The notes: a model not told the origin generated them from the sequence alone. Shown: positions 20,298 through 64,000, counted from the first letter of the stretch. The stretch is DNA of 64,000 bases from Candidatus Woesearchaeota archaeon (GCA_964530945.1 CAZHCJ010000001.1:2140-66139); one strand, 5' to 3'. Program-made: numbers and translations.

Positions 20298-21587
20298 CTA
20301 AGGTGTTAAACGCTTCCTGTCTCTTGGAAAAAGCGTTGCTTCCCTTATGTTTTTTAATCCTAATATTGCCTGCGTTAATCTTTCCAAACCAATACTCCAA
20401 CCCGAATGTTCGGGAGCACCATATCTAAAAGCATCAATGTACCACTTAAAATCTTTTGGCTTCAAATCCTTGGATTTTAATTGATTTATTAATATCTCGG
20501 GAACATGAACACGTTGCCCACCAGAACTTATTTCTAATCCACCGTAAACAGCATCAAACCCTCCAGAAATTCCTATTTCCGGATTTTTTGGCCAAATGTA
20601 AAAGGGCTTCATTTCAATAGGCCATTCATATGTGAAAACTATTGCATCTGGAAAGATCTCATTTAACTTTCTTTCGGCTTCAGGTTCAAAATCGTCTCCT
20701 TCTTTCATTTTAAAACCTTTTTCATTTAAAATTTTTATCGCTTCTTTGTAAGTCAAATACTCTGCTCTTGGAATCTTTAATTTAACTCCTAAAACTTTTA
20801 ATTCATGTTTACACTCTTTCAAAACTATTTCGGCAATGTGTTTCACAACTTGCTCAAGATATTTCATAACTCTCATATCGTCTGCAAAAGCCACTTCTAT
20901 ATCCATTTGACGTATTTCGTTTATGTGTTTGCTCGTATCATGTTTTTCTGCACGCCAGACTGCACTAGTGGAGAACACTTTTTCTAAAGAAATCGCCCCA
21001 AGTTGTTTATACAATTGCGGGCTTTGTGCAAGATATGCCTTCTCTCCAAAGTAATCTACTTTAAACAAATCTGTTCCTCCCTCTGTACTCGTGGAAATTA
21101 TTGCGGGTGGCTGTATTTCGACAAAACCTTTCTTGTGAAAAAACTCCCTAAAAGAATTTATAATCGTACTCTGTATTTTAAAAATTGCTTTAACCTTCGA
21201 TTTACGTAAATCTAGATATCTATAATCTAAACGTTTATCCAAACCTGCTTTGACAGTTTTCTCATTTACATGTATGGGCAGCTTTTCAGATTTCCCCAGA
21301 ATTTTCATTTTTTCTATTTCTATTTCAACATCTTCTCTAACACTTTCTGCTTTGATTTTGGCATTTTTAACCTTACCTCTAATTTCGACTACACTTTCTA
21401 AAGTTAAATCAGAAGCGACATTCATGACTTCTCCACTCTTAGCTATGCACTGAACCATTCCGGTCCTATCACGAAGAACAACAAATTTCAACTTCGCCAA
21501 GCTTCTAACTTCATGCACCCATCCTTTCAGCAAAACTTTTTTATCTTTTTTGCTTGCTTTGAGTTCACTTATGTAGCTTCTATCCAT
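20298..21587 (-). CDS. aspS: Aspartyl-tRNA synthetase (archaeal type)
   Basis: QSPQLYKQ, WRAEKHDTSKHINE, GGLEISSGGQR, GWSIGLERL. Confidence 0.9.
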   Translation of the reverse strand: MDRSYISELKASKKDKKVLLKGWVHEVRSLAKLKFVVLRDRTGMVQCIAKSGEVMNVASDLTLESVVEIRGKVKNAKIKAESVREDVEIEIEKMKILGKSEKLPIHVNEKTVKAGLDKRLDYRYLDLRKSKVKAIFKIQSTIINSFREFFHKKGFVEIQPPAIISTSTEGGTDLFKVDYFGEKAYLAQSPQLYKQLGAISLEKVFSTSAVWRAEKHDTSKHINEIRQMDIEVAFADDMRVMKYLEQVVKHIAEIVLKECKHELKVLGVKLKIPRAEYLTYKEAIKILNEKGFKMKEGDDFEPEAERKLNEIFPDAIVFTYEWPIEMKPFYIWPKNPEIGISGGFDAVYGGLEISSGGQRVHVPEILINQLKSKDLKPKDFKWYIDAFRYGAPEHSGWSIGLERLTQAILGLKNIREATLFPRDRKRLTP

Positions 21588-22739: not shown

Positions 22740-24182
22740 TTAGAAGATTAATCTCTTTATACTTTCCATAACTTCTTTTGCGTTAACCTTTCCCTTAAAT
22801 TCTTTCATAATCAAGCCCATATAGGCATTTTCAGAAAGTCCCGGTTTTGATTTGATAAGATTTAATATCTTTTCCTCCAAATCTTTGACCTCTTTAATTT
22901 CTGTTTGAATTGCTTCTTTAAAACTTTTTCCTTGAACAATCTCTTCCATGACATGTTTTATATTGCTTTCAACAATCTCCTCTCTCGCAACTCCTTCAAG
23001 TATTCTTGCAAGAATCTCTCCATTCAATTTCTTTCTAATCTTATTCATAGAAATTCCTTCTTTGCTTGCAATTTCTTTAATATATAAAACCAAAGTTTTT
23101 GCTGTTAAATCGGGGCGATTGGTAATCTGCAACAAATCCTTATACTCTTCAAGCATATCTTCCTTAAGAATTAATTTAATCATCTCTTTGCTTAGCCCCT
23201 CTGACTCTAACTCCTTCTTAATATCTCGCTTGAGTTTTGGCAAAGCTTTTTTTACACTATCAATTTGCTTTCTCGAAATTTTCAATAAAGGTAAATCTGT
23301 TTCAGGATACATTCTATCTGCCCCTGGCATAGGTCTAAGAAATTTTGAGTTTCCATCTCTCAAAACCCTTCTAACTTCAGCCTTAGATTTCTTTTTCTTG
23401 ACCAAGATTTTTTGACGTTTAATTTCTTTATCCATTGCCAAGCCGATATTATTTATATCTTGAAAACCTTTCAATTCAATTCTCTTCCCTCCTTTAATAG
23501 AAAGGTTCACATCTTGTCTTATTGTTCCAATTCCGCGTTTAACATTACAACTTCTCAAAATCTCTCCAATATGCAAAGCAACTTCTTGGGCCTGGGCAGG
23601 AGTTTTTATGTCTGGCTCTGTGGCAATCTCAATCAAAGGTATTCCTAAACGGTCAAGTTTGTAAATTCCTTTTTTCCTATCTGCTATTCTTGCGGAATCT
23701 TCTTCCAAACAAACACTTTGGATTCTAACCTTCCCAAAATTTGTTTCAACGTAACCATTTTCTGCTATAAGAACAGTACGCTGGAAACCACTCGTGTTAC
23801 TTCCATCAATAACTGTCTTACGCATTATTTGACTTACGGAAAGAATCTCGCAATTTAAAAAAACTGCAACTTGAAGCGCAATATTCAGTGCTTCTTCGTT
23901 AATCATATATGGAGGCTCTTCATCCAACTCCACCAAACACGTTGTATCATAACCTTGATAAATAAAAGTCTTATCAAGAGATGCTTCATGCCTAGCGGCA
24001 ACATCGACCTCGCCACTTTCACCTGCGACCGCATGGAGTTTACGCTTAATGCTAAAATCAGGCTCATCACTTCTCAACACCGAAGGACAACGACAAAAAA
24101 GTTTTCCTGTGTTCAACTGCTGGTGTATCTCCAAACCAGATTTTAAACCAAGTTTTTCGTAATTTAAATCCTTTCCTGTCAT
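22740..24182 (-). CDS. gatE: Glu-tRNA(Gln) amidotransferase subunit E (GatE). Short form, 480 aa.
   Basis: KLGLKSGLEIHQQLNTGKLFCRCPS. GatB/YqeY-like C-terminal helical tail. Confidence 0.85.
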   Translation of the reverse strand: MTGKDLNYEKLGLKSGLEIHQQLNTGKLFCRCPSVLRSDEPDFSIKRKLHAVAGESGEVDVAARHEASLDKTFIYQGYDTTCLVELDEEPPYMINEEALNIALQVAVFLNCEILSVSQIMRKTVIDGSNTSGFQRTVLIAENGYVETNFGKVRIQSVCLEEDSARIADRKKGIYKLDRLGIPLIEIATEPDIKTPAQAQEVALHIGEILRSCNVKRGIGTIRQDVNLSIKGGKRIELKGFQDINNIGLAMDKEIKRQKILVKKKKSKAEVRRVLRDGNSKFLRPMPGADRMYPETDLPLLKISRKQIDSVKKALPKLKRDIKKELESEGLSKEMIKLILKEDMLEEYKDLLQITNRPDLTAKTLVLYIKEIASKEGISMNKIRKKLNGEILARILEGVAREEIVESNIKHVMEEIVQGKSFKEAIQTEIKEVKDLEEKILNLIKSKPGLSENAYMGLIMKEFKGKVNAKEVMESIKRLIF

Positions 24183-27135: not shown

Positions 27136-28470
27136 TTAAACTTCAAGCCTTTCATTCAGCTCATTAGAAATATTTTCCAACATTTTTTCTTTAACTTTTT
27201 CCTTGCTCTTTGTCCATTGCTTGTGTCCTAAAACCCATCCAAGCTTAACCAAAGCCGTCTCGCTTAACATGTTTTCTAAAAATATTACTCCAGTATTCAA
27301 AATCTCACGGCCATTACTATAAACCCACGGATCTAACCTTCCATACACTGTTTGAGCGGTAGCGCAAACAATCATGCCTTTGTCTTGAATTTTTTTAAGT
27401 TTTTTTAGCCACCCTTTGCGAGCTTTAACAGGAACATGTCCAAGGCCAGACATTTCCAAAACCAAACCTTTGTATTTTTTCTTTTGATAAAAATCAAGTA
27501 TATCTGGATTTTGTCCAGGATAAACCTTGACCAAGGCAACTTTTTCTTCGAAAGCCATATCTGTTTTTACCTTGCTTTTACCTTTTTTTCTAACATTGTA
27601 TTCTCTCAATGGAATAATTTTATCAGGAAATATTTTTGCGAAAGCCTTGTCGTTTATTGGCTTGAAAGCATCCCTACGCGAAGTGTGCATTTTTCGTGTT
27701 TTCGTTGCAGGCAAAGCATAACAATAATCATCATTAATTGTTCCGTGCCCCACTAACATCACTTCGGCAATCTCACTTATGGCAGCCAAAGCGCTACACT
27801 GCAAATTCAAATTAGCATCACTTGAAGCACGATCTATACTTCTTTGGCTGTAAGTCAAAACCACTGGCTTGTTCAGGTTCTTGCTTCCCCCCAACAAAAA
27901 GAAACTTAAAGCAGAGGCAGTGTAGTGTAAAAAATCAGTCCCATGAGTAATAATTACCCCTTTAATATTATTATCATTGAGAAGTTTCTTTGCAACCCTC
28001 GCTAACTTTTGCCAGTCTCTATAATCCATATCTTCTGAAGCCTTCAAAAACGGACGCTCAACTTTTACAACATTTACAATCTCAAACACCTCAGGATAAT
28101 ATCTAAACAAATCTTCCGGCTCTGTTAAAGGGTCTACACCTCCTGTTTTTGCATCTAAACGAGAAGCTATTGTCCCTCCCGTAATAATCATTGCGACATT
28201 AGGTTTGCTTTTATGCCGTTTTATTTCCAAATCAGGTCTCTCGCTTTTTCCTTTTTCAATCAATTCTATAAAACGAATTTTTTTCTTGTTCAAACCAATA
28301 TTGTATCCCGAATTGAGTTTTATCAAAACTATGTTTTTTTCATTTTTTGGACTTTGCAAAAGTCTTCCTCTGTAGCTTTTTTTCAAAAGCTTAACTTCAA
28401 CCAAATCTCCTGGCAAAGGTTTAACCTTTTTCTCAATTTTTTTCTTTTTCTTCTTTTTAACCATAAACAA
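27136..28470 (-). CDS. gatD: Glu-tRNA(Gln) amidotransferase subunit D (GatD)
   Basis: N-terminal GatD domain plus an asparaginase-like domain: IITGGTIAS, ITHGTD, GHGT. Poly-Lys N-terminus derived from an A-tract. Confidence 0.85.
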   Translation of the reverse strand: MFMVKKKKKKKIEKKVKPLPGDLVEVKLLKKSYRGRLLQSPKNEKNIVLIKLNSGYNIGLNKKKIRFIELIEKGKSERPDLEIKRHKSKPNVAMIITGGTIASRLDAKTGGVDPLTEPEDLFRYYPEVFEIVNVVKVERPFLKASEDMDYRDWQKLARVAKKLLNDNNIKGVIITHGTDFLHYTASALSFFLLGGSKNLNKPVVLTYSQRSIDRASSDANLNLQCSALAAISEIAEVMLVGHGTINDDYCYALPATKTRKMHTSRRDAFKPINDKAFAKIFPDKIIPLREYNVRKKGKSKVKTDMAFEEKVALVKVYPGQNPDILDFYQKKKYKGLVLEMSGLGHVPVKARKGWLKKLKKIQDKGMIVCATAQTVYGRLDPWVYSNGREILNTGVIFLENMLSETALVKLGWVLGHKQWTKSKEKVKEKMLENISNELNERLEV

Positions 28471-29664: not shown

Positions 29665-29767
29665 CGGGCCTACTAGGATTCGAACCTAGATCAACCGGGT
29701 TTTTCAAGACAAACTTAATCAGTTAACTCTCCGAAACCGGACATTCTATCCATTGAACTATAGGCCC
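29665..29767 (-). tRNA. tRNA-Arg (anticodon TCG) with a 31-nt intron at position 37/38
   Basis: Acceptor GGGCCTA/TAGGCCC. D arm GTTC..GAAT. Anticodon stem TCCGG with loop TTTCGG|intron|C. T arm CTAGG TTCGAAT CCTAG. There is a U27-U43 mismatch, so the exact intron boundaries are uncertain. Confidence 0.6.
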
Positions 29768-32767: not shown

Positions 32768-33853
32768 CTATTTCTTAGTAACAATCTTTTCTAAATTTTC
32801 CCTAAATTCTTCTAAATCCGAAACCTGTATCTGGCCTCCTACTGCTTCTTCATGCCCTCCTCCACGAGAACCTCCAATATCCTTTATGGAGCGGAGTAAA
32901 AACGCTTTAGCCTTTTTTCCACGTATAGAAAGATTCGCTTTCAGTCCACGAATATAAATAACACAAATTAATTTTTTTGGAAAAAGATAATAAAGTTCAC
33001 TTGCCAAGTCACTGCTAATACTTAGGTCTCCCCCATATTGAAAAAACAACAGACGTTCACTAGATTCTTCCCCGATATTTACGGCTTTTTTCAAAAGCTT
33101 TTGATACTTTGAATCAAGTTGTTCAAAACGTTTATGAATAGTTTTATTTTTGTTTGTTTCTTCCAAAACATCATGAGGACCTCGTGCCTTCATCAAAAAT
33201 TTCATCATTTTCACAACATTTGTCGTGCGATCTTTCAGTCCATAGCCCAACATTCTTGAAATTCTTCCTATTCCGGATTTGTAATAAATATCAAATGCTC
33301 CAGCATCTTTCTCCTTGAGAGATAACTCCGGATACTTTTTCTTAAATTCTTTATAAAATTCAGGCATATATTTATCGGCAATGCATCCAGCAACTCCTAT
33401 CCAAGAATCTTCTTTGCGTTTTGAGATTTGATAACATAATGCCGTAACTGGCTCAGTGCTGGGATTCTTGTTTGAAGCAGGATTATAATAACTGACAAAT
33501 TTTGGCACCTCCTCAAAATCTTCGTCTTCAGCAACTTCATGATGGTCAATCCAAACAACAGGTATATTAAACTTTTCCGCTTCGTTAAAGAACTCCCTTG
33601 ATACTAAAGGCTTATCTAAAATAAAAATATAATCTGCTTTCAATTCATGAACACGACGAAAATGGCTTTTATCCAGTTGAGGATAAGACTTTATTGGCAC
33701 TCCTTTACCATGTTCAATGTATCTTTGCAACAAAAGAAAACTACACAAACCATCTTGGTCATTATCAAAAAAGAATAAAGGACGTTGTGCACGCTCTAAA
33801 TGCTCTCTAATCTCCAATACTTGTTTTTTAGTTAACATATTAATTTTTTTCAA
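32768..33853 (-). CDS. DHH/DHHA1 phosphoesterase (RecJ/NrnA-like)
   Basis: DHH motifs FDNDQDGLCS and IDHHE. DHHA1 GGGH motif GGSRGGGHEEAVGG. Confidence 0.75.
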   Translation of the reverse strand: MKKINMLTKKQVLEIREHLERAQRPLFFFDNDQDGLCSFLLLQRYIEHGKGVPIKSYPQLDKSHFRRVHELKADYIFILDKPLVSREFFNEAEKFNIPVVWIDHHEVAEDEDFEEVPKFVSYYNPASNKNPSTEPVTALCYQISKRKEDSWIGVAGCIADKYMPEFYKEFKKKYPELSLKEKDAGAFDIYYKSGIGRISRMLGYGLKDRTTNVVKMMKFLMKARGPHDVLEETNKNKTIHKRFEQLDSKYQKLLKKAVNIGEESSERLLFFQYGGDLSISSDLASELYYLFPKKLICVIYIRGLKANLSIRGKKAKAFLLRSIKDIGGSRGGGHEEAVGGQIQVSDLEEFRENLEKIVTKK

Positions 33854-34565
33854 ACTTAAAAAAGCACAAATAAGGTGCCTTGAAGTAGAAACTATTTAAA
33901 CGAGGATATTTCTTTTTCCATTCTCTCTTTGGCCTATTTTCGACAAGTTTTCTTAATTGAAATCCTTTTGGAATTAATAAATCAAAATAATCTTCAAAAA
34001 TTCTTGGATAATCAACAAATTTTTTTTCACTTCCTGCAATTTTAAAATAAAATTCTTTTTTACTAAAGTAATTCTTTAAACCATTATCCTCATTATCTGG
34101 ATCCATTTTTAAATTTGAAATAGGATGAGGCACTGAAAAGATAAAAAGTCCTTTTCTTTTCAAAACTCTTTTAATTTCCTTTATTATAATCTTTAAATCT
34201 TTTATATGGTCTAAAACCAAGGAAGCAGTCACAATATCAAACTCATTTTCCCCAAATTTCAACTTTCCTATATCTGAAACATCAAATTTTGCTTTAGGGC
34301 ACCTTTTTTTAGCAAGTCTTATCATCTCTTTACTAAAGTCAACACCATAACAATCTGCACCTCTTTTCAAATATTCTTTAATATGAATCCCTGGACCACA
34401 ACCTAAATCTAAAAGTTTCATTCCAGGAAGATTTTTGGGGACCATTTCAAACATCAAAGGCTGCTCGACCTCTCTATTCCAAAAACCATGATCATTCTTT
34501 TTCGTTCTAGTTTTTAAAAAATCCCTTGCGCTTTTATTATAGGCTTTAACTAATTCCTTGTCCAT
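33840..34565 (-). CDS. Class I SAM-dependent methyltransferase
   Basis: LDLGCGPGIH motif I. DVSDI. 241 aa. Confidence 0.8.
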   Translation of the reverse strand: MDKELVKAYNKSARDFLKTRTKKNDHGFWNREVEQPLMFEMVPKNLPGMKLLDLGCGPGIHIKEYLKRGADCYGVDFSKEMIRLAKKRCPKAKFDVSDIGKLKFGENEFDIVTASLVLDHIKDLKIIIKEIKRVLKRKGLFIFSVPHPISNLKMDPDNEDNGLKNYFSKKEFYFKIAGSEKKFVDYPRIFEDYFDLLIPKGFQLRKLVENRPKREWKKKYPRLNSFYFKAPYLCFFKFEKN

Positions 34566-34566
34566 T

Positions 34567-35655
34567 TTAATTTATACTCTTCCCAACAAGTATTTTCTCT
34601 TTTAAAGTTTTAAGTTCTTTAGTTATAGAAGCGATTAAATCTTCATTGTTAAATATCTTCTTGAAATCTTTTTCATCGGCCGAAAAAACATCTTCTAAAC
34701 TATCAAAATGGTTAAGGACTATTTTAATATCTTTGTCTAACAAGGAAGTATTGCCAAGAATCCTATACCCTTCAGGAGATATCTCTTTATCGTGAAGTTC
34801 TCCAAACAACATTCTTGAAATATTTGAAGTTTCAAGAAGAAAATCAAAACTCATATTCTCAAGCATCTCATCTGACTTCTCTATTTTTTCTTTAAGATAA
34901 TCTTTCAGAATCATGTTTCTTTCATGATTCAAATCTTTTGTCAATTCTTTGAGACGCATACTCACTATGTTCCCTTCTTTACCTAACTCCACAAGATAAC
35001 GTTTAACACTCTCTGAAATCCTTCTTATAGTTTCCAAACTCTGAAGTATGTTTGACACATCGCTTAAAGACACAAGATTGGTTATTTCTAATATATTCAA
35101 ATGACTCAACAAATCATCAAAAATATCCTTTTGTTTCTCTAATATCTGCAATGTCTCTGCTGCCCTTCTTAATATCTCAGAGGTTCTTTCCAAGAAATAA
35201 GATTCATCTCTGAAATACAATGTAATTTTATTCTTCCTCTCGGAAACGGCAATTGAAATAGTTCCGTGTTGCTTTGCAGTACGCTCTGCAGCCTTATGCC
35301 TAGTTCCGGTTTCTTTTGTTGCAGTTTGAATACTTGGTTTTAAGAGCGTATTAGCATAGAGAATCTTCTTCAAATCATAAGATACAATTATCGCTCCATC
35401 CATTTTAGCCAATTCAACAATTTTTTGTGAACTGAATTTTGAATTAATCCTAAATCCTCCTTCCACACTATTCATTAGGTCATTTACATCAAAAACAATT
35501 AACGCCCCCATTCTAGCCCTAAGAATATCATCAAGCGCAGTGCGAATGGCAGTTCCAGGAGAGAATATTTTCAAGATATCTACAATATCTTTTCCTTTGA
35601 AAGGATCTTCATCAACTTCTTTTTCATCATTCTTTTGCTTCTTCTTTTTTGCCAT
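34567..35655 (-). CDS. disA: DisA-like diadenylate cyclase (N-terminal DAC domain, helical linker, HhH-like C-terminus)
   Basis: DAC motifs DGAIIVSYD and TGTRHKAAERTA. C-terminal KIVLNHFDSLEDVFSADEKDFKKI resembles the DisA HhH region. Confidence 0.75.
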   Translation of the reverse strand: MAKKKKQKNDEKEVDEDPFKGKDIVDILKIFSPGTAIRTALDDILRARMGALIVFDVNDLMNSVEGGFRINSKFSSQKIVELAKMDGAIIVSYDLKKILYANTLLKPSIQTATKETGTRHKAAERTAKQHGTISIAVSERKNKITLYFRDESYFLERTSEILRRAAETLQILEKQKDIFDDLLSHLNILEITNLVSLSDVSNILQSLETIRRISESVKRYLVELGKEGNIVSMRLKELTKDLNHERNMILKDYLKEKIEKSDEMLENMSFDFLLETSNISRMLFGELHDKEISPEGYRILGNTSLLDKDIKIVLNHFDSLEDVFSADEKDFKKIFNNEDLIASITKELKTLKEKILVGKSIN

Positions 35656-48810: not shown

Positions 48811-48912
48811 GGCTGTGTAGCTCAGTGTTTAGAGCGCCGCTCTCATGAATTTTTCAAATAAAGGAAAAATTGGGTCAGGCGGAGGTCGGGGGTTAAATTC
48901 CCCTCACAGCCA
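48811..48912 (+). tRNA. tRNA-Met/Ile2 (anticodon CAT) with a 29-nt intron at position 37/38
   Basis: Acceptor GGCTGTG/CACAGCC. D arm GCTC..GAGC. Anticodon stem CCGCT with loop CTCATG|intron 48848-48876|A, then GGCGG. T arm GGGGG TTAAATT CCCCT. CTTTTAAAT lies about 25 nt upstream. Confidence 0.7.
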
Positions 48913-51442: not shown

Positions 51443-53128
51443 TTAAGCTTTGGGAAATATTCCACTATTCTTTCCACCAGTACTTCCGCTCTTAGACATT
51501 TTCTTCCTTGCTCTCCTAACCACGAATAAGACTATAATCAAAGCTAAAACTGCAATTATAAGAACTATTGCTCCACTCGTTCCACTAATCACGTCGCCAA
51601 AAGCAACAAAACCAAGCAACGGAGCTCCTCCAAGAACCACTGGTTGATCCACACTGCTTGAATATTTTTGAGAGTTTATTTCTACATGAATTGTTAAATT
51701 TCCTTCCACACTTTCATTCACTGGAACAATTGTTTCAAAATCTCTTGTTTCATTTACATCCAAAGTCACATTATCTTCAACTTCTGAAACTTTCACACTT
51801 GCATTGTCAAACAATACGAATCTCAAACCTATACTCTGATTATCCATTGATAAATCTCTAAGTCTATAATTTACACTTACTTCATCATCACGTATTTTTC
51901 TAACATCCGTCAAACTAAATTCAAAAGTTATTGGAATAACATCTAAAGTAAAATCTGTATTTTTAGAAGTTTCAGAGCAATCAACCAAAACATTAAATGT
52001 GTTTGTGCTTTCGACTGCATCTTCAGGAACACTCAATGTCATAGAGAATGTTTTTGAATCTTCCTGATTAAGATTTGCGCTTTCATCTGGGTAAGAAACC
52101 CAATTCGCATTCTCTCCTGAAACACTTAATCTGCAAGCACTCAAAGGAACATTTCCTGAATTGGATGCTGTAACGCTCAATGTTGTTTCCTGGCCCGGAT
52201 TTAATTCTTGATTAGAAATTTGTGAAAGTGTCAACTCTTTTATTGCAACTATTGCTGCAGCAGTTGTAGGTGAAGATGTTGTTGAGGTCGTTGTTTCTGA
52301 TGTCTCCTCACTTTCAGATTCTTCTTCAGCCGCTTCTTCCTCTTCTTCCTCTTCAACAGGCAAAACTACGCTAAATTCGGAAGAGTTTGAAATTAAATCT
52401 GTATGATTAACATATAGTAATACCTCGTAGTCCCCTTCTTCAGAAACTTCTAAAGTGGTATTTTCGCAATCCGCAACAGTGATATTTGTCTCTAAATTAA
52501 TATTATACCAACAAGTTGAATTCTCAACATTGGTAAAAAAGTTTAAAGGAATCTCCGTTAAAGAATCTTTTTCTCCGCTAGGCTCATAAATCAGAACGAA
52601 ACTAGCTTCCCCACTCTCGTTCCCTTCTTCTTGAGTCTCATTTGTCTCGTTGCTCTCTTCCACACTTGGAATTAAATATCCTATTGACACAGAGCTCAAA
52701 TAAGCAGTTTCATTCCCTCCCTGAGAAAACATTGCTTTATATTGGAAATATCTTGAACTTAAATTCAAATCACTTAAATCTTCTGAAGAAAAACTTGCAT
52801 TGTCGCACGATTCTAAATCACAAGCCTGGACCTCGAATGTTAAACCCTCTCCGACATATGTCACATTGTCCCACATAGTATTCTCATTGCCTGAATCAAA
52901 AACTCCTGAAGTATAAGTGCCTTGGGTTTGGTTCTCATCTAAAACAACTCTACTTAAATTAGCATCGAAAACAGTTTTATTATAAGTTCCCAAATCAAAA
53001 TCATCTTGACCCCCTTGGTCAAAAACAGCAAACCCTGTTCCAGAAAAATTAGGCTGATAAAATGCGAATAAGAAAACGACCCCTAACAAAAGTATCGCGA
53101 TAAGATACATCTCTACCTCTTTTTTCAT
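51443..53128 (-). CDS. Cell-surface glycoprotein candidate (S-layer-like): signal peptide, sequon-rich ectodomain, acidic/Thr-Ser linker, C-terminal TM anchor
   Basis: N-terminal signal. More than 20 N-x-S/T sequons. EEEEEEAAEEESESEETSETTTSTTSSPTTAAA. C-terminal hydrophobic helix followed by RRARKK. Confidence 0.55.
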   Translation of the reverse strand: MKKEVEMYLIAILLLGVVFLFAFYQPNFSGTGFAVFDQGGQDDFDLGTYNKTVFDANLSRVVLDENQTQGTYTSGVFDSGNENTMWDNVTYVGEGLTFEVQACDLESCDNASFSSEDLSDLNLSSRYFQYKAMFSQGGNETAYLSSVSIGYLIPSVEESNETNETQEEGNESGEASFVLIYEPSGEKDSLTEIPLNFFTNVENSTCWYNINLETNITVADCENTTLEVSEEGDYEVLLYVNHTDLISNSSEFSVVLPVEEEEEEEAAEEESESEETSETTTSTTSSPTTAAAIVAIKELTLSQISNQELNPGQETTLSVTASNSGNVPLSACRLSVSGENANWVSYPDESANLNQEDSKTFSMTLSVPEDAVESTNTFNVLVDCSETSKNTDFTLDVIPITFEFSLTDVRKIRDDEVSVNYRLRDLSMDNQSIGLRFVLFDNASVKVSEVEDNVTLDVNETRDFETIVPVNESVEGNLTIHVEINSQKYSSSVDQPVVLGGAPLLGFVAFGDVISGTSGAIVLIIAVLALIIVLFVVRRARKKMSKSGSTGGKNSGIFPKA

Positions 53129-56537: not shown

Positions 56538-56659
56538 CGGACCCGGCAGGATTTGAACCTGCGACTTCTTGCTTACTTCGGAAAGTCACGCCTTTCTGAA
56601 GGTCGGAAAAACATTTTCCGTAGAAGGCAAGCGCTCTATCCAGGCTGAGCTACGGGTCC
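56538..56659 (-). tRNA. tRNA-Arg (anticodon TCT) with a 47-nt intron at position 37/38
   Basis: Acceptor GGACCCG/CGGGTCC. D arm GCTC..GAGC. Anticodon stem CTTGC/GCAAG with loop CTTCTA|intron|A. T arm GCAGG TTCAAAT CCTGC. TTTTAAATA lies about 25 nt upstream. Confidence 0.6.
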
Positions 56660-56710: not shown

Positions 56711-57388
56711 TCACTTTATCTTCTTTTTAAGAAATTTATCATAAAGCAAGAAAAAGAAAGGCACTCCCATATTAAACTCAATCAATGAGTTCTCTAACAA
56801 TACAATAAAATCTCCTGGACGTATTCCATTCAGCAATAAAGAAAACTCCATCATGAAATGGACTAAAAATCCTACCAAAAACAAGTACAATATCTTTTTC
56901 CAATCATATTTCAAAAATAAAAGTAAAGAAAATCCTACAACAACTATGCCTACTCTTAAAAGTCTAAAATCAGACATGTGCCTAACCAGAGTTATTGTGG
57001 AATCATTTAATGGAATGAATTGAGAAAGAAATCCTACCAAAACCCATCCTAAAAAAACCAATGCAGTCCAACCCCATTTTTTTGATTTTTTCTCAAACAT
57101 CAAAAACACATATGCATACTCTACCCCATAAGATAATGAAAACCAGAGAAAAAACAAAACAACGCTTCCAGTAAAACTAAAGGGTAAACTAATCTCTCTG
57201 ATTCCAGTATGTAACCAAATTCCCCAATCAACTAAAAAGTTTATAAAAATACCTCCTAAAAAGAAAACCAAAAGAGGGATTTTCTTTTTGTACCTAAACA
57301 GCAAAAACAAGAAAACCGCAAGAAAAATAATATCGAAAAAGATGTAGTCAACCCCAAAATTTCTTATTACATCATAAACCATTTTCAC
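56711..57388 (-). CDS. Polytopic membrane protein, hypothetical
   Basis: Six to seven TM helices. No motif recognised. Confidence 0.4.
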   Translation of the reverse strand: MKMVYDVIRNFGVDYIFFDIIFLAVFLFLLFRYKKKIPLLVFFLGGIFINFLVDWGIWLHTGIREISLPFSFTGSVVLFFLWFSLSYGVEYAYVFLMFEKKSKKWGWTALVFLGWVLVGFLSQFIPLNDSTITLVRHMSDFRLLRVGIVVVGFSLLLFLKYDWKKILYLFLVGFLVHFMMEFSLLLNGIRPGDFIVLLENSLIEFNMGVPFFFLLYDKFLKKKIK

Positions 57389-58293
57389 ACTTCAATCTTC
57401 TCCAAGTCTTTAGGCAGCTCAACGCTTTTGAAGATTTTCTTAGCTTCTTGAAAAACGCTTTTTGAATCTTTCCTATACCTATCACTCAAGTGCACAAGAT
57501 AAAGTTTCTTTACTTTAGCTTTCTTTGCTATCTTTGCTGCTTGCTCAGATGTTAGGTGCTTGTAAGCTTTAGCCAAATCATTAAAATTTGAATCAAACGT
57601 AGACTCACAAATCAACACATCGGCATTTTTTACAAATTTTGCAATTCGCTTATTTTCCAAAGTATCTAAAACAAAAGAAATCTTTTTTCCAGACTCAACA
57701 AAGGTCAAATCTTTTGCCTTGTATTTCTTTCCTTCATATTTAATGTCCTTTCCTTCTTTCAATTCTTGCAAATGTTTCCCAGGTTTGATTTTATATTTAT
57801 TAAGTTTCTTTTTATCAATTTTGAGATTATCTTTAAGAACAAAATTATAAGCATTGCAAGGCTGAACGTGAACCATTTTCTCGGCCTCCAAATAAAAATC
57901 TTCGCTATCAAAAAACTTTCCAGGATTTGAAATCTCCTCGACTTTAATTTTAAATTCTTCAATTTCTCCAAATGCCTTAAACATCTCTTTCATATGTTTC
58001 TTAAATCCATAAGGTCCATAAATCTCCAATGTTTTTCCATATCCCGAAGTCGAAAGCGTTCTTAAAAGCCCGGGAAGTCCAAACGTATGGTCTCCGTGCC
58101 AGTGTGTAATCAAGATTTTAGTGATTTTGCAAGGATTTAGCTTTGCCTTGCGTAGCTGTGTCTGCGTCCCTTCTCCACAATCAATCAAAATGTTTTCTCC
58201 TTTATAACGCAAAAGAAAACCAGGATGGTTTCTTTTAGGTGTAGGCACCATGCTGCCTGTTCCAAGAAACGTCAAATGTATTTTTTCTGGCAT
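57385..58293 (-). CDS. rnz: Ribonuclease Z (tRNA 3' processing; MBL fold)
   Basis: LTFLGTGSMVPTPKRNHPGFLL. ILITHWHGDHTFGLPGLL. Confidence 0.85.
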   Translation of the reverse strand: MPEKIHLTFLGTGSMVPTPKRNHPGFLLRYKGENILIDCGEGTQTQLRKAKLNPCKITKILITHWHGDHTFGLPGLLRTLSTSGYGKTLEIYGPYGFKKHMKEMFKAFGEIEEFKIKVEEISNPGKFFDSEDFYLEAEKMVHVQPCNAYNFVLKDNLKIDKKKLNKYKIKPGKHLQELKEGKDIKYEGKKYKAKDLTFVESGKKISFVLDTLENKRIAKFVKNADVLICESTFDSNFNDLAKAYKHLTSEQAAKIAKKAKVKKLYLVHLSDRYRKDSKSVFQEAKKIFKSVELPKDLEKIEV

Positions 58294-58360: not shown

Positions 58361-58612
58361 TCACTCTTTCTTCAAAGCTGTTGAAGCCGGAGAAATAAAG
58401 ATTATTGTATCTCCTCTCAAAAATGTCAATCCAAGATTTCTTTTAATCTCGCCATTGTCCATCTCTTTGATGTTATCTAAGACAAGATTTATGTGAATGT
58501 CGAAAGCTAAAAGCGTTCCAACAAACTGCTTGTCTCCTTTCAAATGCACAAGAACTTCCTTCCCTTTAGACTGATTCAAAAGATCAAGAGGTCTTTCAAT
58601 TCCTTTCGCCAT
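58361..58612 (-). CDS. Sm-like archaeal protein (SmAP/LSm)
   Basis: Sm1/Sm2 fold: KEVLVHLKGDKQFVGTLLAFDIHINLVLDNIKE...LGLTFLRGDTIIFI. Confidence 0.85.
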   Translation of the reverse strand: MAKGIERPLDLLNQSKGKEVLVHLKGDKQFVGTLLAFDIHINLVLDNIKEMDNGEIKRNLGLTFLRGDTIIFISPASTALKKE

Positions 58613-58775: not shown

Positions 58776-59144
58776 ATGAAACAAGGACGAAAGACTTCTG
58801 GAGGGAAGTATAAGAAACATAGAAAAAGAAAGTCTTATGAGAGAATCGGTCAAAGAACGAATGTTAAGCTTGGAGAAAAAGAAAAAAAGAAAGGCAAAAG
58901 AGTCATGGGTGGAAACAAAAAAACCCATTTGCTTAATGTTAAATTTGTAAACCTGGTGTCTAGTAAAGGAAAGAACCAACGGGCTGAAATTAAAAACGTT
59001 TTTCAAACACCTTCAAATCGTTTCTTAGCTAGACAAAACATCATAACAAAAGGCACAATTGTAGAAACAGACAAAGGCAAAGTAAAAATAACAAACCGTC
59101 CGAGCCAAGAAGGCATGGTTAATGGAATTCTTGTAAAAGAGTGA
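58776..59144 (+). CDS. rps8e: Ribosomal protein S8e
   Basis: QGRKTSGGKYKKHRKRK...RVMGGNKK...NRFLARQNIITKGTIVETDKGKVKITNRPSQEGMVNGILV. Confidence 0.8.
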   Translation: MKQGRKTSGGKYKKHRKRKSYERIGQRTNVKLGEKEKKKGKRVMGGNKKTHLLNVKFVNLVSSKGKNQRAEIKNVFQTPSNRFLARQNIITKGTIVETDKGKVKITNRPSQEGMVNGILVKE

Positions 59145-59252: not shown

Positions 59253-60218
59253 ATGGCTTCAATAAAAAAATGTCCTGAATGCGGCGGCGTCAACCTAACA
59301 TACGATCCTCATCTCGGAGAAGTTGTATGTAACGATTGTGGCTTAGTTGTTGAAGAAAAAATGGTTGATTCTGGAATAGATCTTCACGGCAAATTTGACA
59401 AAAGCGAAAAAAAAGGGCGTGGCGGAGCCCCAACAAGCATTCAAAAATTCGACAAAGGTTTAACGACAAACGTTGGAGAAATCTCTGATATTTATAGATT
59501 AGATTCAAAACAAACACGTAAGTTTCTTCGTTTGAAAAAATGGCAGGAACGTGTTTCCACAAGCATAGAACGTAATCTAAGGCTTGCAATGGCAGAGCTG
59601 CGCGTCATTTCTTCTTACTTGAGCCTGCCAAACGTTGTAAGGGATGAAGCCGCAAGAATATACAATTATGTGTTGCAACGCGGTCTTGTAAGAGGTAGGA
59701 GCATGGAATCTGTAATCGCAGCATGTTTATATGCTGCATGTCGTTCATACAGCGTTCCGAGAACTCTAGATGAAATGGCTACTGCTTCCGATGTTGAACG
59801 TAAAGAAATTGGCAGAACATACAGATTCATAATTAGAAAACTAGGAATAAAAGTTAAGCAAAGCTCTCCAAAAGATTACATATCGCGTTTCTCATCCGTT
59901 TTAAAACTCAGTCCCAAATCCCAAAACATTGCTCTTGAAGTTTTAGATGATGCGGAAAAAGCAGAACTTACATCTGGAAGAGGTCCTGCAGGAATAGCTG
60001 CCGCGGCACTCTACGTTGCCGCGTTAATGAATGATGAAAAGAAAACCCAAAGAGAAGTTGCAGACATCGCAGGGATTACGGAGGTAACAATACGTAATAG
60101 ATATAAAGAACTAATAGAAAAGCTTGGATTGGAAGAAAAGATAAGTCAAAAAGAAAACGAAGAGAAAAAAAACAAAGATAAAAATTCAAAGAAAGAAAAA
60201 ATTAAGAAGAAGAAATAA
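59253..60218 (+). CDS. tfb: Transcription initiation factor IIB (TFB)
   Basis: Zn ribbon CPECGG...CNDCG. B-reader/linker, then two cyclin-fold repeats. TATA cgTTTATAAAtg lies about 45 nt upstream. Confidence 0.95.
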   Translation: MASIKKCPECGGVNLTYDPHLGEVVCNDCGLVVEEKMVDSGIDLHGKFDKSEKKGRGGAPTSIQKFDKGLTTNVGEISDIYRLDSKQTRKFLRLKKWQERVSTSIERNLRLAMAELRVISSYLSLPNVVRDEAARIYNYVLQRGLVRGRSMESVIAACLYAACRSYSVPRTLDEMATASDVERKEIGRTYRFIIRKLGIKVKQSSPKDYISRFSSVLKLSPKSQNIALEVLDDAEKAELTSGRGPAGIAAAALYVAALMNDEKKTQREVADIAGITEVTIRNRYKELIEKLGLEEKISQKENEEKKNKDKNSKKEKIKKKK

Positions 60219-60285: not shown

Positions 60286-60310
60286 TCTAAAGGTCGCAGA
60301 AGATTTTTAT

Positions 60311-60394
60311 GCGGGGGTGCCGGAGTGGTCAAACGGACAAGATTAAGGCTCTTGTGGCTTAGTGCCTACGCAGGTTCGAATCCTGTCTCCCGCA
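60311..60394 (+). tRNA. tRNA-Leu (long variable arm, A73). The anticodon loop TTAAGGC reads as AAG under the canonical fold.
   Basis: Acceptor GCGGGGG/CTCCCGC. Anticodon stem CAAGA/TCTTG. 15-nt variable arm. T arm GCAGG TTCGAAT CCTGT. CTTTTAAAT lies about 26 nt upstream. Confidence 0.7.
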
Positions 60395-60402
60395 TTAAAA
60401 CT

Positions 60403-63400
60403 CTAATTCTCCAATGGTTGCCCTTCAGAATCACAGCTAACAGGGCAATTGCCATATGCAGGCGCACTTATCTCATATCCTGAAGGAAAATTTGGATTAT
60501 CTTCATACAAAAAATCTTTATCCAATCCTCGAGGTTCTGAATCATCTTTCTGAGGATTTGTGCACCCGTGCCCAATAAGATTTCCTGTTTCAATATTGTA
60601 TTTGTCAATCAAATAATGGACTAGCTTCGAAAGTGATTCTTTCTGACTTTCTGTATATTCATCCTCTCCCTCTCCAAGATTTACTATCTCTATACCTATA
60701 GATAAAGAATTTAAACAATTTGCGTGCTGAGCACTAAGTTCTTCAGGAACTACTCTTACAATTCTTCCGTCTTTTCCAACAATGTAATGAATACTATTCC
60801 TGTTTTTAATTAATGCCAAAAGGGTAGCCTCCACACTTCCCGATGCAGAATGGTGCAAAACAATATACTCTGGAGTTGCATCATTGCTTCTCTCTAAATG
60901 ATTAAATGCGGAAAGAGACATCTCTTCGGATAAAGAATCCAAAAAAGGATGAGAATCTGAATAAAAACTACCTTCTCCCTCTGAATCTTCTTCAGTTTCT
61001 GGTTCTTCAGTTTCTGGTTCATCTTCATCGTCATCATCTTGAGAAACTAAATTTTGATAAGCACTCAAAGCAATCTCTCCTAAAGCATTCCCCCTCAACC
61101 AGTAAAGATGTCCTTTTTGATTGTTGTAAAATACTTTATTGATGTTGTCAGTAATGTTGTTTACCAAATCCATTCCTCTCAGGCCTTTTAAGCCATCTAG
61201 AAAGCCTTCAAAATTCGTTATGTAATCACCACTCTCTTTAAGAGAGTTTAATGCTTTTTCTTCATGCACGCTTAAAATTTCGTCTTCAACTTCACTGGAC
61301 CTAACAATGTTTTCCACGCTTTGAGCATCAAGCCAACATTTTAAGTTTTCTTGTCCGCAATTTCCTACCTCTTTCCATCTTGCATCTTCCGTTCCAAAGC
61401 TAGGATCAGAACCTTTTCCTGGACTTTCTGTAGAACAAACACGAATTATTCCCTTATTGTATATCTCAGGATTTATTGCATCTTCAACAGCAGACTGAGG
61501 ATTCAAACTCATTAAAACATCTAATTTTGGAGTTCCTGAAACACAATCTTCTGCAGAATCTATATTCTCTTCTAGTGCTTGATCTTTTATATACTGGTCA
61601 CGAATAATGTCTGTTGCAAGACTTGTTGAAACCGTTTGGAACCCACACTCTTCTTGTCCATTGACAATAATACATAATTCATTATACCCTGAAGGAGCTG
61701 TAAAGTCTTTTGTTTGAGTGATTTTCTCTCCAACATCTAAACTTCCTGCCGCAACAACCCTCCTATAGTTAGTGTCTCCAAAGTAACTCGGATTGCCTTT
61801 CAAATAAACCTCATAAATTGCAGGAGAGTCTCTTCCTGAGAATATGAAATAAAATACTTTATAGTGCGAAATAGGTGGATTTGTTGTGCTAGTATATTCT
61901 ATCTCCTGAAAGGTTCCATGGAATTGAGCAGGTGAATCTGGTTGAGTTAACGCGTCTAAAAGTGAACCCATATCTGGATACGCGCCAGAAATCCAACTCT
62001 TGCAAACCTCGGTTCCTGCATTTTGAATACTCCTTGCCTTGAAAGCCTCAAAAGAATTTGCAGCATAATAATCTGTTATGTAATCCACAGATTCACTGGC
62101 ACGGTCAAAAGAATCTTCAACAGTAAGATACTCTCCACCCCCGCTTCCTCCCTGTCCAAAGACACGCTCAACCCCTTCTTTTACAAAAAGTTCTCCTAAA
62201 GGCTTCGCTTCTCTCCATAATAAATCACACATATAAACACTATTTATCTCATCACAAATCCCTACTGTTTGACCTGTATCTAAACTTGTTTGAAGACATT
62301 GCGTATAAGAGTCTATTACCTCTGTAAGTCCATCGACACCGGCATGAATTCCTGTTAAACAAATAGGGACTTTCACTTCTGGAAAGTTCGGTAAACAAAG
62401 CAAAGTACTCCCTATTATTCCCGACTGCACAACATCATCTACAGGGTATTCTCCGCCAAAATCGCATCTAGAATTTGGGCAAACGAATGGGTCACAAATG
62501 TTAAACAATAAATTACAATCCGAAGGAGACATGAAGTCTTGACATTGTATGTCTGGAGTGCCAACATAAGTCTTTCCAATAGTAAAAATTTCTGTTCCCC
62601 CACATGTCGTTCTGATACTTATTTTATCTCCTACATCTCTTCTTTGACCTTCCTCTGATGCTTGCCTTATTGCACTAACAGAGCAATCAACTAAGTTTGA
62701 AGCTTCATTCTCACTCAAACCAGGAAATTGATTGTATGGTTGTCCGGTTCCAAGATTAATCATCTGACAAATATCATCCGATGTACCTGAGCTAAATTCC
62801 TCTTCTCCATTCTCACCGACATTGCAAACAAAGAAACTAGAAATTCTTCCAGAATCTTCATATGAGCCCATACTTCTCCCAATAGGCAATGTAGGTTTTA
62901 TTGCGGCATACCAGCCATCATCAGTATCAAAAGGAACAATTGCAGGTAAATTCTCATACTTTCCAGAATCATAAAAACGTATTTCTGGATTTTTATATTT
63001 GTTCTTATACGATTCTCCATCGATTTTTTCTAAATCAATATTCAGGGGATTTGTTTGTTCATTACTATACTCTTCTAAGTTTCCTATACTTGTTATCAAA
63101 TATGTTTGAATTATATTGTAATCATCATCTAAAACAAACAAAATTTTTTCTTGATTACTTCCATGCTTGTATAAGAAAGGATATACAAAACTAGAATCAT
63201 CTATTTTTGAATGTGAGTTAGAGTTGAAATTGTTTTTAACATTGTTAAATCTCTTAACATCACTCACCACATAGTCTTTCTGGTTTGGAACACTCACAAT
63301 TGCTTCCTCAAAACCATACTTCTCTGCAAAATCATCTTTCTCTTTTTCCGACTTGGAATTAATCCAAACTTCAATCAATTCAGATTTTATCTCTTGCATA

Positions 63401-64000
63401 GCTATCGCTTTAAGATTTTCATCTCCAGAAACCAATAATCTAGAATTAACATTCAAATCCCTAGCTTCACTCAAAAGGGTATTTGAACTACCTATCAAAG
63501 CGATAATATCTCTAACAGGAACGGGATTTCCTTCAATTTCAATTGTTTCCCCCATCTCCGATTCAATTCTCGAAACAAGATTATCTTTAAAACTAGAATC
63601 AACATAAGTTTCGTAAACTTTCTTTGTGTCTATAACTTCTCCAAATAATCCGCCTTCAGAGAATCTTCCTTCAATAGAATCTATTTCTTGATTTTCTTTT
63701 CCTATCTCTCCTGCAACAGCACTAACATCTGCCTCAATAGCATCATTATTTTCTAAAAGGCATTGGTCTACACTCCCATAAGCCCCATTTTTGTATTCCT
63801 GTTCACACTTCTTGAACCAGCCTTCTTCTCCACGCATCACATTTTGTCTTGCGATTCCTGCGCCCCCAATATTCGAAAAGAAATTTTTAACTATCAACCC
63901 TCCTGCAGTTACCAAACAAGAAGTTTTTCCAACTTTAACCACTTTTCCCAATACGTCTTCAATCTTTTCAAGTTTAACAAGTGTTTCGTTCCAAGATTCA
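60403..64000 (-). CDS. Giant Cys-rich secreted/surface protein of at least 1,180 aa with a C-terminal Amidase_2 domain. The 5' end runs off the window: the frame is open to nt 64000, and the track's M at 63951 is a TTG codon.
   Basis: C-terminus TPEYIVLHHSASGSVEATLLALIKNRNSIHYIVGKDGRIVRVV...AQHANCLNSLSIGIEIVN...LIGHGCT. Central region has more than 30 Cys. Acidic linker DDDDEDEPETEEPETEEDSEGEG. Confidence 0.65.
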   Translation of the reverse strand, partial: ESWNETLVKLEKIEDVLGKVVKVGKTSCLVTAGGLIVKNFFSNIGGAGIARQNVMRGEEGWFKKCEQEYKNGAYGSVDQCLLENNDAIEADVSAVAGEIGKENQEIDSIEGRFSEGGLFGEVIDTKKVYETYVDSSFKDNLVSRIESEMGETIEIEGNPVPVRDIIALIGSSNTLLSEARDLNVNSRLLVSGDENLKAIAMQEIKSELIEVWINSKSEKEKDDFAEKYGFEEAIVSVPNQKDYVVSDVKRFNNVKNNFNSNSHSKIDDSSFVYPFLYKHGSNQEKILFVLDDDYNIIQTYLITSIGNLEEYSNEQTNPLNIDLEKIDGESYKNKYKNPEIRFYDSGKYENLPAIVPFDTDDGWYAAIKPTLPIGRSMGSYEDSGRISSFFVCNVGENGEEEFSSGTSDDICQMINLGTGQPYNQFPGLSENEASNLVDCSVSAIRQASEEGQRRDVGDKISIRTTCGGTEIFTIGKTYVGTPDIQCQDFMSPSDCNLLFNICDPFVCPNSRCDFGGEYPVDDVVQSGIIGSTLLCLPNFPEVKVPICLTGIHAGVDGLTEVIDSYTQCLQTSLDTGQTVGICDEINSVYMCDLLWREAKPLGELFVKEGVERVFGQGGSGGGEYLTVEDSFDRASESVDYITDYYAANSFEAFKARSIQNAGTEVCKSWISGAYPDMGSLLDALTQPDSPAQFHGTFQEIEYTSTTNPPISHYKVFYFIFSGRDSPAIYEVYLKGNPSYFGDTNYRRVVAAGSLDVGEKITQTKDFTAPSGYNELCIIVNGQEECGFQTVSTSLATDIIRDQYIKDQALEENIDSAEDCVSGTPKLDVLMSLNPQSAVEDAINPEIYNKGIIRVCSTESPGKGSDPSFGTEDARWKEVGNCGQENLKCWLDAQSVENIVRSSEVEDEILSVHEEKALNSLKESGDYITNFEGFLDGLKGLRGMDLVNNITDNINKVFYNNQKGHLYWLRGNALGEIALSAYQNLVSQDDDDEDEPETEEPETEEDSEGEGSFYSDSHPFLDSLSEEMSLSAFNHLERSNDATPEYIVLHHSASGSVEATLLALIKNRNSIHYIVGKDGRIVRVVPEELSAQHANCLNSLSIGIEIVNLGEGEDEYTESQKESLSKLVHYLIDKYNIETGNLIGHGCTNPQKDDSEPRGLDKDFLYEDNPNFPSGYEISAPAYGNCPVSCDSEGQPLEN

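Follow-up and report, generated by a model that had tools for sequence, protein, structure and literature searches.

What would an archaeon do with a giant protein that ends in an enzyme for cutting the bacterial cell wall? The question is raised by one edge of a 64,000-nt stretch of DNA (hereafter the window) from a Candidatus Woesearchaeota archaeon (GCA_964530945.1 CAZHCJ010000001.1:2140-66139), in which the original prediction, made from the sequence alone, had described an open reading frame (ORF) of more than 1,180 aa, still open at the window edge, that passes from a cysteine-rich region through a polyacidic linker into an Amidase_2 domain. Our analysis identifies its product with a 1,931-aa database protein, P0001, and we have very little doubt that P0001 is a member of a giant extracellular murein-lytic family that here bears an Amidase_2 cassette.

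The frame runs on the minus strand from position 63999 to a stop codon at 60403-60405, and comprises 1,198 uninterrupted codons before it runs off the window, in keeping with the length first claimed. A TTG start at 63951 was discarded as a convention of the ORF lister. The encoded fragment is 100% identical to P0001, which comes from a 131,817-bp NCBI contig, and the 5' 733 codons of the gene, signal peptide included, lie beyond the window edge. P0001 starts with MRRKILFLVGILVLISSVFLVSA, followed by TYTRS, and combines a positive n-region, a hydrophobic core and a V-S-A motif, the sequence features of a Sec-type signal peptide; the same type of N-terminal signal is found in 207 of 217 full-length relatives. 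P0001 is predicted on these features to be exported via this signal, in agreement with the secretion proposed at the outset, whose stated refuting condition, a cytoplasmic protein with no export signal, is not borne out; a scan of the full protein detected no second transmembrane-like segment, a C-terminal one included. The polyacidic linker and the quoted cysteine-rich stretch are both present, and in relatives, too, core and tail are joined by acidic or low-complexity linkers of a similar kind. The cysteine count, put at more than 30 upstream of the amidase, was too high: 24 precede the linker, 28 lie in the window part and 36 (1.9%) in the full protein.

The C-terminal domain is identified as Amidase_2 by Pfam (PF01510, E=8e-23, 81.6 bits against a curated cutoff of 26, profile positions 3-120 of 131), and NCBIfam returns a weak AmpD match. 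The amidase also matches ten PHROGs families, nine of them annotated as amidase or endolysin (best 2e-14), while a two-sequence amidase profile recovers AmpDh2 (2.6e-14), AmiD (4e-10) and T7 lysozyme (5e-5). The nearest solved chains are endolysin-type amidases, AmpDh2, AmpDh3, AmiD, AmpD and T7 lysozyme. All motifs on which the original assignment had been based are present (VLHHSAS, SIHYIVGKDG, SIGIE and LIGHGC), and the profile search on the C-terminal end that it had called for is significant. In HMMER alignments, His1049, Glu1104, His1144 and Lys1151 (fragment numbering) stand opposite their counterparts in AmpDh2, AmiD and AmpDh3, and the SIGIEIVN block is the same in AmpDh2 and AmpDh3 and reads SIGIELEN in AmiD. 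The positions of His1049 and His1144 we take to be zinc ligands from the AmpD and AmiD structures. The third ligand is an aspartate in AmpD and AmiD and a cysteine in T7 lysozyme and PGRP. In P0001 the loop that should supply it would be one residue shorter than in AmpD-type enzymes (KDD versus K-x-D at His+8 to His+10), in which case K-D-D would reproduce the K-x-D of AmpD; Asp1152, Asp1153 and an invariant Glu1155 adjoin Ser1154. The domain thus looks catalytically competent by its retained residues, with the third ligand only a candidate.

The cassette and the core have nearly equal G+C content overall (GC) and at third codon positions (GC3), with GC/GC3 of 0.372/0.251 and 0.365/0.256, respectively. 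In a word-based search with the tail alone, the only close homologue of the amidase was a 319-aa archaeal protein, P0121 (54% identity), which has a pilin-type N-terminus (MLKGQEEFESIF...) and an Amidase_2 domain, and which keeps Lys1151, the residue opposite R/K of AmiD. Because the composition equals that of the core and the sole close homologue is archaeal, the amidase was probably drawn from the DPANN gene pool rather than acquired by recent bacterial transfer; recent horizontal transfer of the cassette finds no support in GC or GC3. A metagenome scan with the amidase tail gave just two ordinary Amidase_2 matches of about 40% identity, one of which (L087) lies on a high-GC bacterial contig. 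P0121 itself is encoded in an archaeal operon (L005, 143-6161), with a 166-aa ORF, a 348-aa ORF and a 1,163-aa Peptidase_M23 protein, on a contig that also carries Alba, enolase and apgM. By its gene content this operon would be a second murein-degrading gene set in DPANN archaea, tied to a pilin-type signal.

The remainder of the protein belongs to a large family. Among the matches listed, 119 other homologues (E 0 to 1e-133, most of 1,700-2,100 aa) cover about 82% of the window fragment, which is all but the amidase, and identity reaches 40-51% (E=0) to members of about 1,900-2,100 aa, some of which are named 'transglycosylase SLT domain-containing protein'. When the core (fragment aa 340-990) was searched exhaustively with phmmer against 1.84 billion representatives, 1,055 proteins were returned, 913 of them with E <1e-30. 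Because the core is always found at about residues 1070-1750 of proteins of 1.7-3.8 kaa, the family appears sharply bounded and defined by a core of roughly 1,700 aa. At least 565 loci in the GTDB species genomes encode it, that of SCGC AAA011-D5 included, and the best 80 of these (L007-L086), to which all locus counts below refer, bear Woese-, Pace- or Nanoarchaeota labels, save L010 and L023. Nearly all members can thus be assigned, by their labels, to the Pacearchaeota/Woesearchaeota (DPANN, GTDB Nanoarchaeota). The giant genes of L010 and L023, deposited as 'Bacillota bacterium' and 'Patescibacteria group bacterium', lie on contigs that encode archaeal TFB (90% identical), S8e and LSm; these public metagenome-assembled genomes are evidently mis-binned. 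The fusion to a cysteine-rich module, first considered unusual, is therefore not so: the module is the core that a large, described family has in common, most often with a lytic domain at its end, and it is only the choice of Amidase_2 that is unusual.

How far this choice departs from the family can be seen at the C-terminus, where in every relative the similarity to P0001 is lost near residue 1715, and the tails beyond it measure 10 to >1,400 aa. Pfam assigns the very C-terminal end of P0031 and P0037 to SLT and recognises Phage_lysozyme2 in P0077; on 68 complete tails it identifies SLT in 16, SLT_4, VanY and DUF1615 in two each, and Glucosaminidase, NlpC/P60, Lysozyme_like, PT-HINT, CAP and ankyrin in one each, and on ten tails of database relatives it finds nothing for most. 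A family-specific SLT hidden Markov model (HMM), seeded from a Pfam-positive SLT tail, matches 81 of 200 members and 63 of 133 further representatives. Through this HMM only are the Pfam-negative tails of P0002 and P0008, which have TES...G[IV]MQIN motifs, linked to SLT, and a phmmer search of the SLT-like tail of P0122 against the PDB gave no match. P0001 matches neither Pfam SLT nor the family-specific HMM and has Amidase_2 at that position; conversely, an amidase HMM matches P0001 only among about 330 sampled members. Given that all 13 nearest relatives by core similarity, of which P0122 is the closest (60% identity), have SLT-like ends, it would follow that an ancestral SLT-type cassette was replaced by Amidase_2 in this lineage. 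Many SLT-bearing tails, those of P0002, P0025, P0053 and P0122 among them, also contain one or two copies of a 60-100-aa module with the signature F(E/Y)xxDG...W(Y/R/V)WS...W, which has no Pfam match, is missing from the window protein and might be wall-binding.

The scaffold that holds these cassettes is marked by its cysteines. In an alignment of 50 members (A1), 22 of the 24 cysteines in the window part of the core are invariant, as are six in the N-terminal third, which makes 28 in all and would fit a disulfide-stabilised extracellular fold. The cysteine cluster (invariant C392, C411, C486, C495, C502, C507, C512, C535, C547, C568, C582 and C591) encloses the family's most conserved block, QCQDFMSPxDCxLLFNVCDPVICPSSRCDLGG...DVIQSGIIGS...LCLPN...PVCLTGIxAGIDG. 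AlphaFold2 (AF2) models were built from family alignments for the window fragment and for the N-terminal 774 residues. The former (mean predicted local distance difference test score, pLDDT, 66.7; core mostly 70-90) consists in order of long helices (2-43, 85-112 and 194-228), a beta-rich region, a cysteine-rich helical region, a beta-sandwich and a helical end, and the latter (mean pLDDT 77.9) mostly of beta-sandwich modules with one helical insert. Foldseek gave weak matches only (E about 0.02-0.1, about 110-125 residues aligned), to ApaG and glycosidase beta-sandwich domains, which would belong to the modelled segment 692-791, and the core had no recognisable relative among solved structures in this search. 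We also looked for homology of the scaffold trunk to phage or secretion-system structural proteins and found none; neither the core nor the partner protein described below has any match in PHROGs.

In four long contigs of relatives (L001-L004), a conserved gene of 605-619 aa lies upstream of the giant gene. These apparently co-transcribed genes share 4 nt in L002 and L003, and in L001 and L004 a 37-51-aa ORF lies between them. The product of the upstream gene has no match in Pfam or PHROGs, several invariant cysteines and an N-terminus, MKNK(R)GQVTIFIIIAIILV, that resembles an archaeal class III (type IV pilin-like) signal. A profile built from this partner matched, in 67 of the 80 loci, an ORF whose end lies no more than 400 nt from the giant ORF; 12 of the other 13 have no upstream sequence, and in L058 the partner ORF lies about 1.5 kb upstream. 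A further ORF of 37-63 aa often precedes or follows the partner gene. Downstream of the giant gene, TFB is encoded in 52 of the 80 loci, S8e in 48, LSm in 45 and a metallo-beta-lactamase (MBL)-fold, tRNase Z-like protein in 40, and all four are found in this position in the window (Table 1). Because this neighbourhood is conserved across relatives and window, the giant gene would be a vertically inherited chromosomal fixture rather than part of a virus or island, and a viral or mobile-element origin was rejected on the same housekeeping genes. In the window, a convergent tRNA-Leu(aag) gene ends 7 nt from the giant-gene stop codon; between the giant gene and TFB, L001-L004 contain small unknown ORFs or nothing.

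We propose that P0001 begins with a Sec-type signal peptide and continues with a scaffold of about 1,700 aa, in which beta-sandwich modules accompany a helical core held by invariant cysteines; a flexible acidic linker and an exchangeable enzymatic cassette complete its four parts. After Sec export, the scaffold would be held at the cell surface, perhaps by the co-transcribed pilin-signal partner of ~610 aa, where the tethered amidase would cut the MurNAc-L-Ala amide bond, stripping stem peptides and leaving the glycan uncut. The wall of a contacted bacterial partner or prey would thereby be locally un-crosslinked, allowing contact and nutrient uptake; SLT-bearing relatives would cut the glycan instead. 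Taken as a whole, this reading, in which an exported family member uses an Amidase_2 cassette to open bacterial murein for contact or nutrients, is the one we favour, with moderate confidence. Murein is suggested as the target because enzymes for different murein bonds have been recruited onto one scaffold, and the repeated exchange of end domains among such enzymes is stronger comparative evidence for it than one SLT domain. That the polymer would be bacterial murein rather than an archaeal one is suggested by the recruitment of glycan-, amide- and peptide-cutting enzymes, among them VanY, whose substrate, D-Ala-D-Ala, is not in pseudomurein. Of the originally proposed attack on a bacterial wall, the murein target is thus strengthened by the relatives' other murein-specific enzymes, while the biological role is one that we infer. 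A more far-reaching version, which we put forward tentatively and consider possible rather than probable, is that scaffold and partner form an undescribed archaeal surface apparatus with a new fold that docks on bacteria and breaches their envelope with swappable enzymatic 'warheads', namely SLT, amidase, carboxypeptidase, glucosaminidase and NlpC/P60.

Several observations weigh against the murein-opening reading. More than a third of members have tails without a recognised lytic domain and, because of this, the main function of the scaffold is probably a different one, for instance adhesion or contact, with the enzymes as an aid. No peptidoglycan-binding domain was recognised in the giant protein. 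In the ungapped alignment, the third-ligand aspartate of AmiD and AmpDh3 (His+10), which is also an aspartate in P0121, stands opposite Ser1154, and the AF2 model of the amidase part is uninformative (pLDDT <50), because the alignment held no amidase homologues. The partner gene is seen in relatives, and that of this genome would lie beyond the window edge. Finally, the amidase fusion is found in one contig only and its protein forms a single-member cluster; an exact search of the GTDB species genomes with the window-end DNA gave no match.

Taken at its most sceptical, this last point would make the junction of core and amidase an assembly chimera or a decaying gene, as no second assembly was found. 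Such an artefact is scarcely credible: one continuous frame spans core, linker and domain, the two sides of the junction match in GC and GC3, the amidase is complete and keeps its catalytic motifs, and the junction falls exactly where all relatives change from core to variable tail. A structural role in the envelope, as an S-layer-like protein or part of a junction between archaeal cells, whose C-terminal domain only binds glycan or acts on the archaeon's own polymer or on that of a pseudomurein-bearing methanogen, would account for the great size of the exported protein, its near-universal presence in the lineage and its Ig/cadherin-like beta modules, and with only a candidate third zinc ligand the domain could be binding-only like non-catalytic PGRPs. 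We regard this as very unlikely, since both histidines, the glutamate and the lysine are all retained, S-layer proteins are mostly cysteine-poor and fast-evolving whereas the core keeps its 28 invariant cysteines, and relatives carry VanY, whose substrate pseudomurein lacks.

The retained scaffold also bears on the possibility that the protein is released and digests wall debris of dead bacteria to provide an auxotrophic archaeon with amino acids and amino sugars, with no cell contact or host involved. P0001 has a signal peptide but no recognisable anchor, neither a C-terminal nor a second transmembrane segment, an amino-acid permease is encoded in the window, and Pacearchaeota have been proposed to take amino acids from dead-cell peptidoglycan (PMC11537232). 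However, usual secreted murein hydrolases have 200-500 aa, and a scaffold of ~1,700 aa that retains invariant cysteines, together with a pilin-like gene that overlaps it or lies just upstream, would be a heavy cost for a diffusible enzyme; moreover, the scaffold is retained even where the lytic domain is unrecognisable, and we judge scavenging to be unlikely. A still less probable alternative is a weapon of the polymorphic-toxin type, in which the conserved trunk delivers a variable toxin against competing bacteria, as do the peptidoglycan hydrolases (PGHs) of Halobacteria. The conserved trunk with its variable C-terminal module and the PT-HINT pre-toxin domain of one relative are what such a weapon would have, and killing of bacteria by archaeal PGHs is established (PMC12352652). 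Its genes would be expected in a variable island, yet the giant gene has a fixed position beside TFB, S8e and LSm in most of the 80 loci, no immunity-like gene or cassette array follows it, the window having tRNA-Leu and TFB there instead, and some tails are non-enzymatic (ankyrin, CAP).

The rest of the window agrees with the archaeal source that had been assumed. Its markers (TFB, S8e, LSm, MCM, TFE-alpha, deoxyhypusine synthase, GatD/GatE and three intron-containing tRNAs) identify the source organism, as far as gene content can, as a DPANN-type archaeon. The three tRNAs are long Rfam matches (102-122 nt) not reported by ARAGORN, and presumably contain introns. The ATP-dependent DNA ligase and MCM genes are each split by an intein with a LAGLIDADG homing-endonuclease domain. 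A minus-strand cluster at 32768-35655 encodes a bacterial-type DisA (DAC and DisA-linker domains), beside a SAM (S-adenosylmethionine) methyltransferase, and a DHH/DHHA1 phosphoesterase; DisA and the phosphoesterase may form a pair for synthesis and degradation of cyclic di-AMP in a DPANN archaeon. Two paired, paralogous genes for class II tRNA synthetases of the Asp/Asn/Lys type lie near GatD and GatE, and a 561-aa ORF with Ig_VWA7 and NPCBM-associated domains is probably another surface protein.

Table 1. Coordinates of the features discussed, in window positions (residue numbers are those of the window fragment unless P0001 is named).
Feature	Position	Strand	Basis or remark
3' 62% (codons 734-1931 and stop codon) of the 1,931-aa protein	60403..64000	-	open frame; P0001 identity
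Long-helix region (aa 1-230), invariant C28, C65, C80	63310..63999	-	AF2, pLDDT mostly 70-90
Cysteine cluster, 14 Cys in 200 aa, 12 invariant	62227..62826	-	alignment A1
Cysteine-rich stretch CDPFVCPNSRCDFGG	62452-62496
Predicted beta-sandwich (Ig/ApaG-like), aa 692-791	61627..61926	-	AF2 strands
Polyacidic linker DDDDEDEPETEEPETEEDSEGEG, 23 residues, between conserved core and variable C-terminal cassette	60970-61038	-	pLDDT <50 stretch
Amidase_2 (N-acetylmuramoyl-L-alanine amidase, T7-lysozyme/AmpD/PGRP fold), residues 1041-1145	60565..60879	-	Pfam PF01510
Codon His1049 (P0001 H1782), predicted first Zn ligand, in VLHHSAS	60853..60855	-	opposite His of AmpDh2 'fivlHyt'
Codon Glu1104 (P0001 E1837), predicted catalytic glutamate, in SIGIE	60688..60690	-	HMMER alignments
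GHGCTNPQKDD loop: His1144 predicted second Zn ligand, Lys1151, Asp1152/Asp1153 candidate third ligand	60541..60570	-	alignment
tRNA-Leu(aag)	60310-60395	+	
TFB	59253-60218		downstream of giant gene
S8e	58776-59144		downstream of giant gene
LSm	58361-58612		downstream of giant gene
MBL-fold gene	57385-58293		downstream of giant gene
Long tRNA	56538-56659	-	Rfam
561-aa ORF	51443-53128	-	Ig_VWA7, NPCBM-associated
Long tRNA	48811-48912	+	Rfam
DisA	34567-35655	-	DAC, DisA-linker
SAM methyltransferase	33840-34565		
DHH/DHHA1 phosphoesterase	32768-33853	-	
Long tRNA	29665-29767	-	Rfam
GatD	27136-28470		
GatE	22740-24182		
Class II tRNA synthetase pair	18600-19907, 20298-21587	-	
MCM	3037-6411	+	split by intein
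ATP-dependent DNA ligase	88-2223	+	split by intein

To our knowledge, no member of the Pacearchaeota or Woesearchaeota has been cultivated with an identified host, and whether bacteria are their hosts is an open question of DPANN biology. The literature consulted likewise treats host identity as open. The amidase variant offers an approach to it, as the domain is small enough (about 190 aa) to be expressed, and the substrates that it prefers could give a clue to the wall chemotype of the partner. The conserved partner gene, together with a core that has no structural assignment, is likewise a concrete target for cryo-electron tomography and complex prediction.

The giant lytic protein itself is already known. 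Large extracellular lytic-transglycosylase proteins, 'fam00969', were described in these lineages by Castelle 2021 (PMC8204110), who proposed attachment to bacterial walls and cited earlier sightings (Rinke 2013, Castelle 2015); Vigneron 2022 (PMC9723730) reported a 'large lytic murein transglycosylase', and an mBio 2024 study repeats the observation. SLT-bearing members have been read as binding or degrading bacterial walls (PMC8204110, PMC9723730, PMC10936187). P0001 shares with fam00969, whose identity with our family we take from the description, its lineages, size class, signal peptide, ~1,700-aa core and proposed role, but has Amidase_2 in place of the name-giving SLT/GH23 domain. The 12 best-ranked of 230 full-text matches in the literature include no report of Amidase_2 in these lineages, and the exchange of SLT for an amidase, the cassette polymorphism, the pilin-signal partner, the fixed synteny and a core without structural relative go beyond the published descriptions that we found.

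The cassette itself shares its profile and the HxH...HY...GIE...GH...K motifs with the AmpD, AmiD, AmpDh2-3 and T7-lysozyme amidases. These are, however, proteins of 150-280 aa from bacteria and phages, single-domain or with a peptidoglycan-binding domain, whereas in P0001 the amidase makes up the final 10% of an archaeal protein of 1,931 aa. Exported, modular PGHs by which archaea kill bacteria are known as Woldo/Danwoldo, and PGH homologues are reported to be particularly prominent and diverse among Nanoarchaeota (PMC12352652). Those PGHs are small, and the survey, from 2025, required recognised catalytic and wall-binding domains both; P0001, whose scaffold spans 1,700 aa and in which no binding domain was recognised, falls outside its definition.

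The combination of a conserved N-terminal part with a variable C-terminal module is shared with polymorphic toxins, to which the single PT-HINT relative also points. However, the giant family has no immunity gene or orphan cassettes and occupies a stable housekeeping neighbourhood; downstream of it in L001-L004 there are small unknown ORFs or TFB and no repeated cassettes. Moreover, most of its end domains are wall hydrolases, which, unlike polymorphic toxins, would be harmless to a producer that has no murein. Such toxin systems, of the Rhs/CdiA type, were reportedly set out by Zhang and colleagues in 2012.

A large conserved structural trunk that carries a small, interchangeable wall-cutting domain, be it SLT, lysozyme, amidase or peptidase, and thereby opens the wall of a target cell locally is also found in phage tail lysins, tape-measure proteins, T7 gp16, the 'evolved' VgrG3 of type VI secretion systems and the VirB1-type lysins of type IV secretion systems. 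Phage tail lysins and evolved VgrG spikes are the nearest functional analogues of the giant family, in logic only, given the trunk comparison above. If the view of an apparatus with swappable warheads is correct, it would be the archaeal functional counterpart of these lysins and spikes, and would account for the way in which Pacearchaeota and Woesearchaeota live on bacterial hosts.

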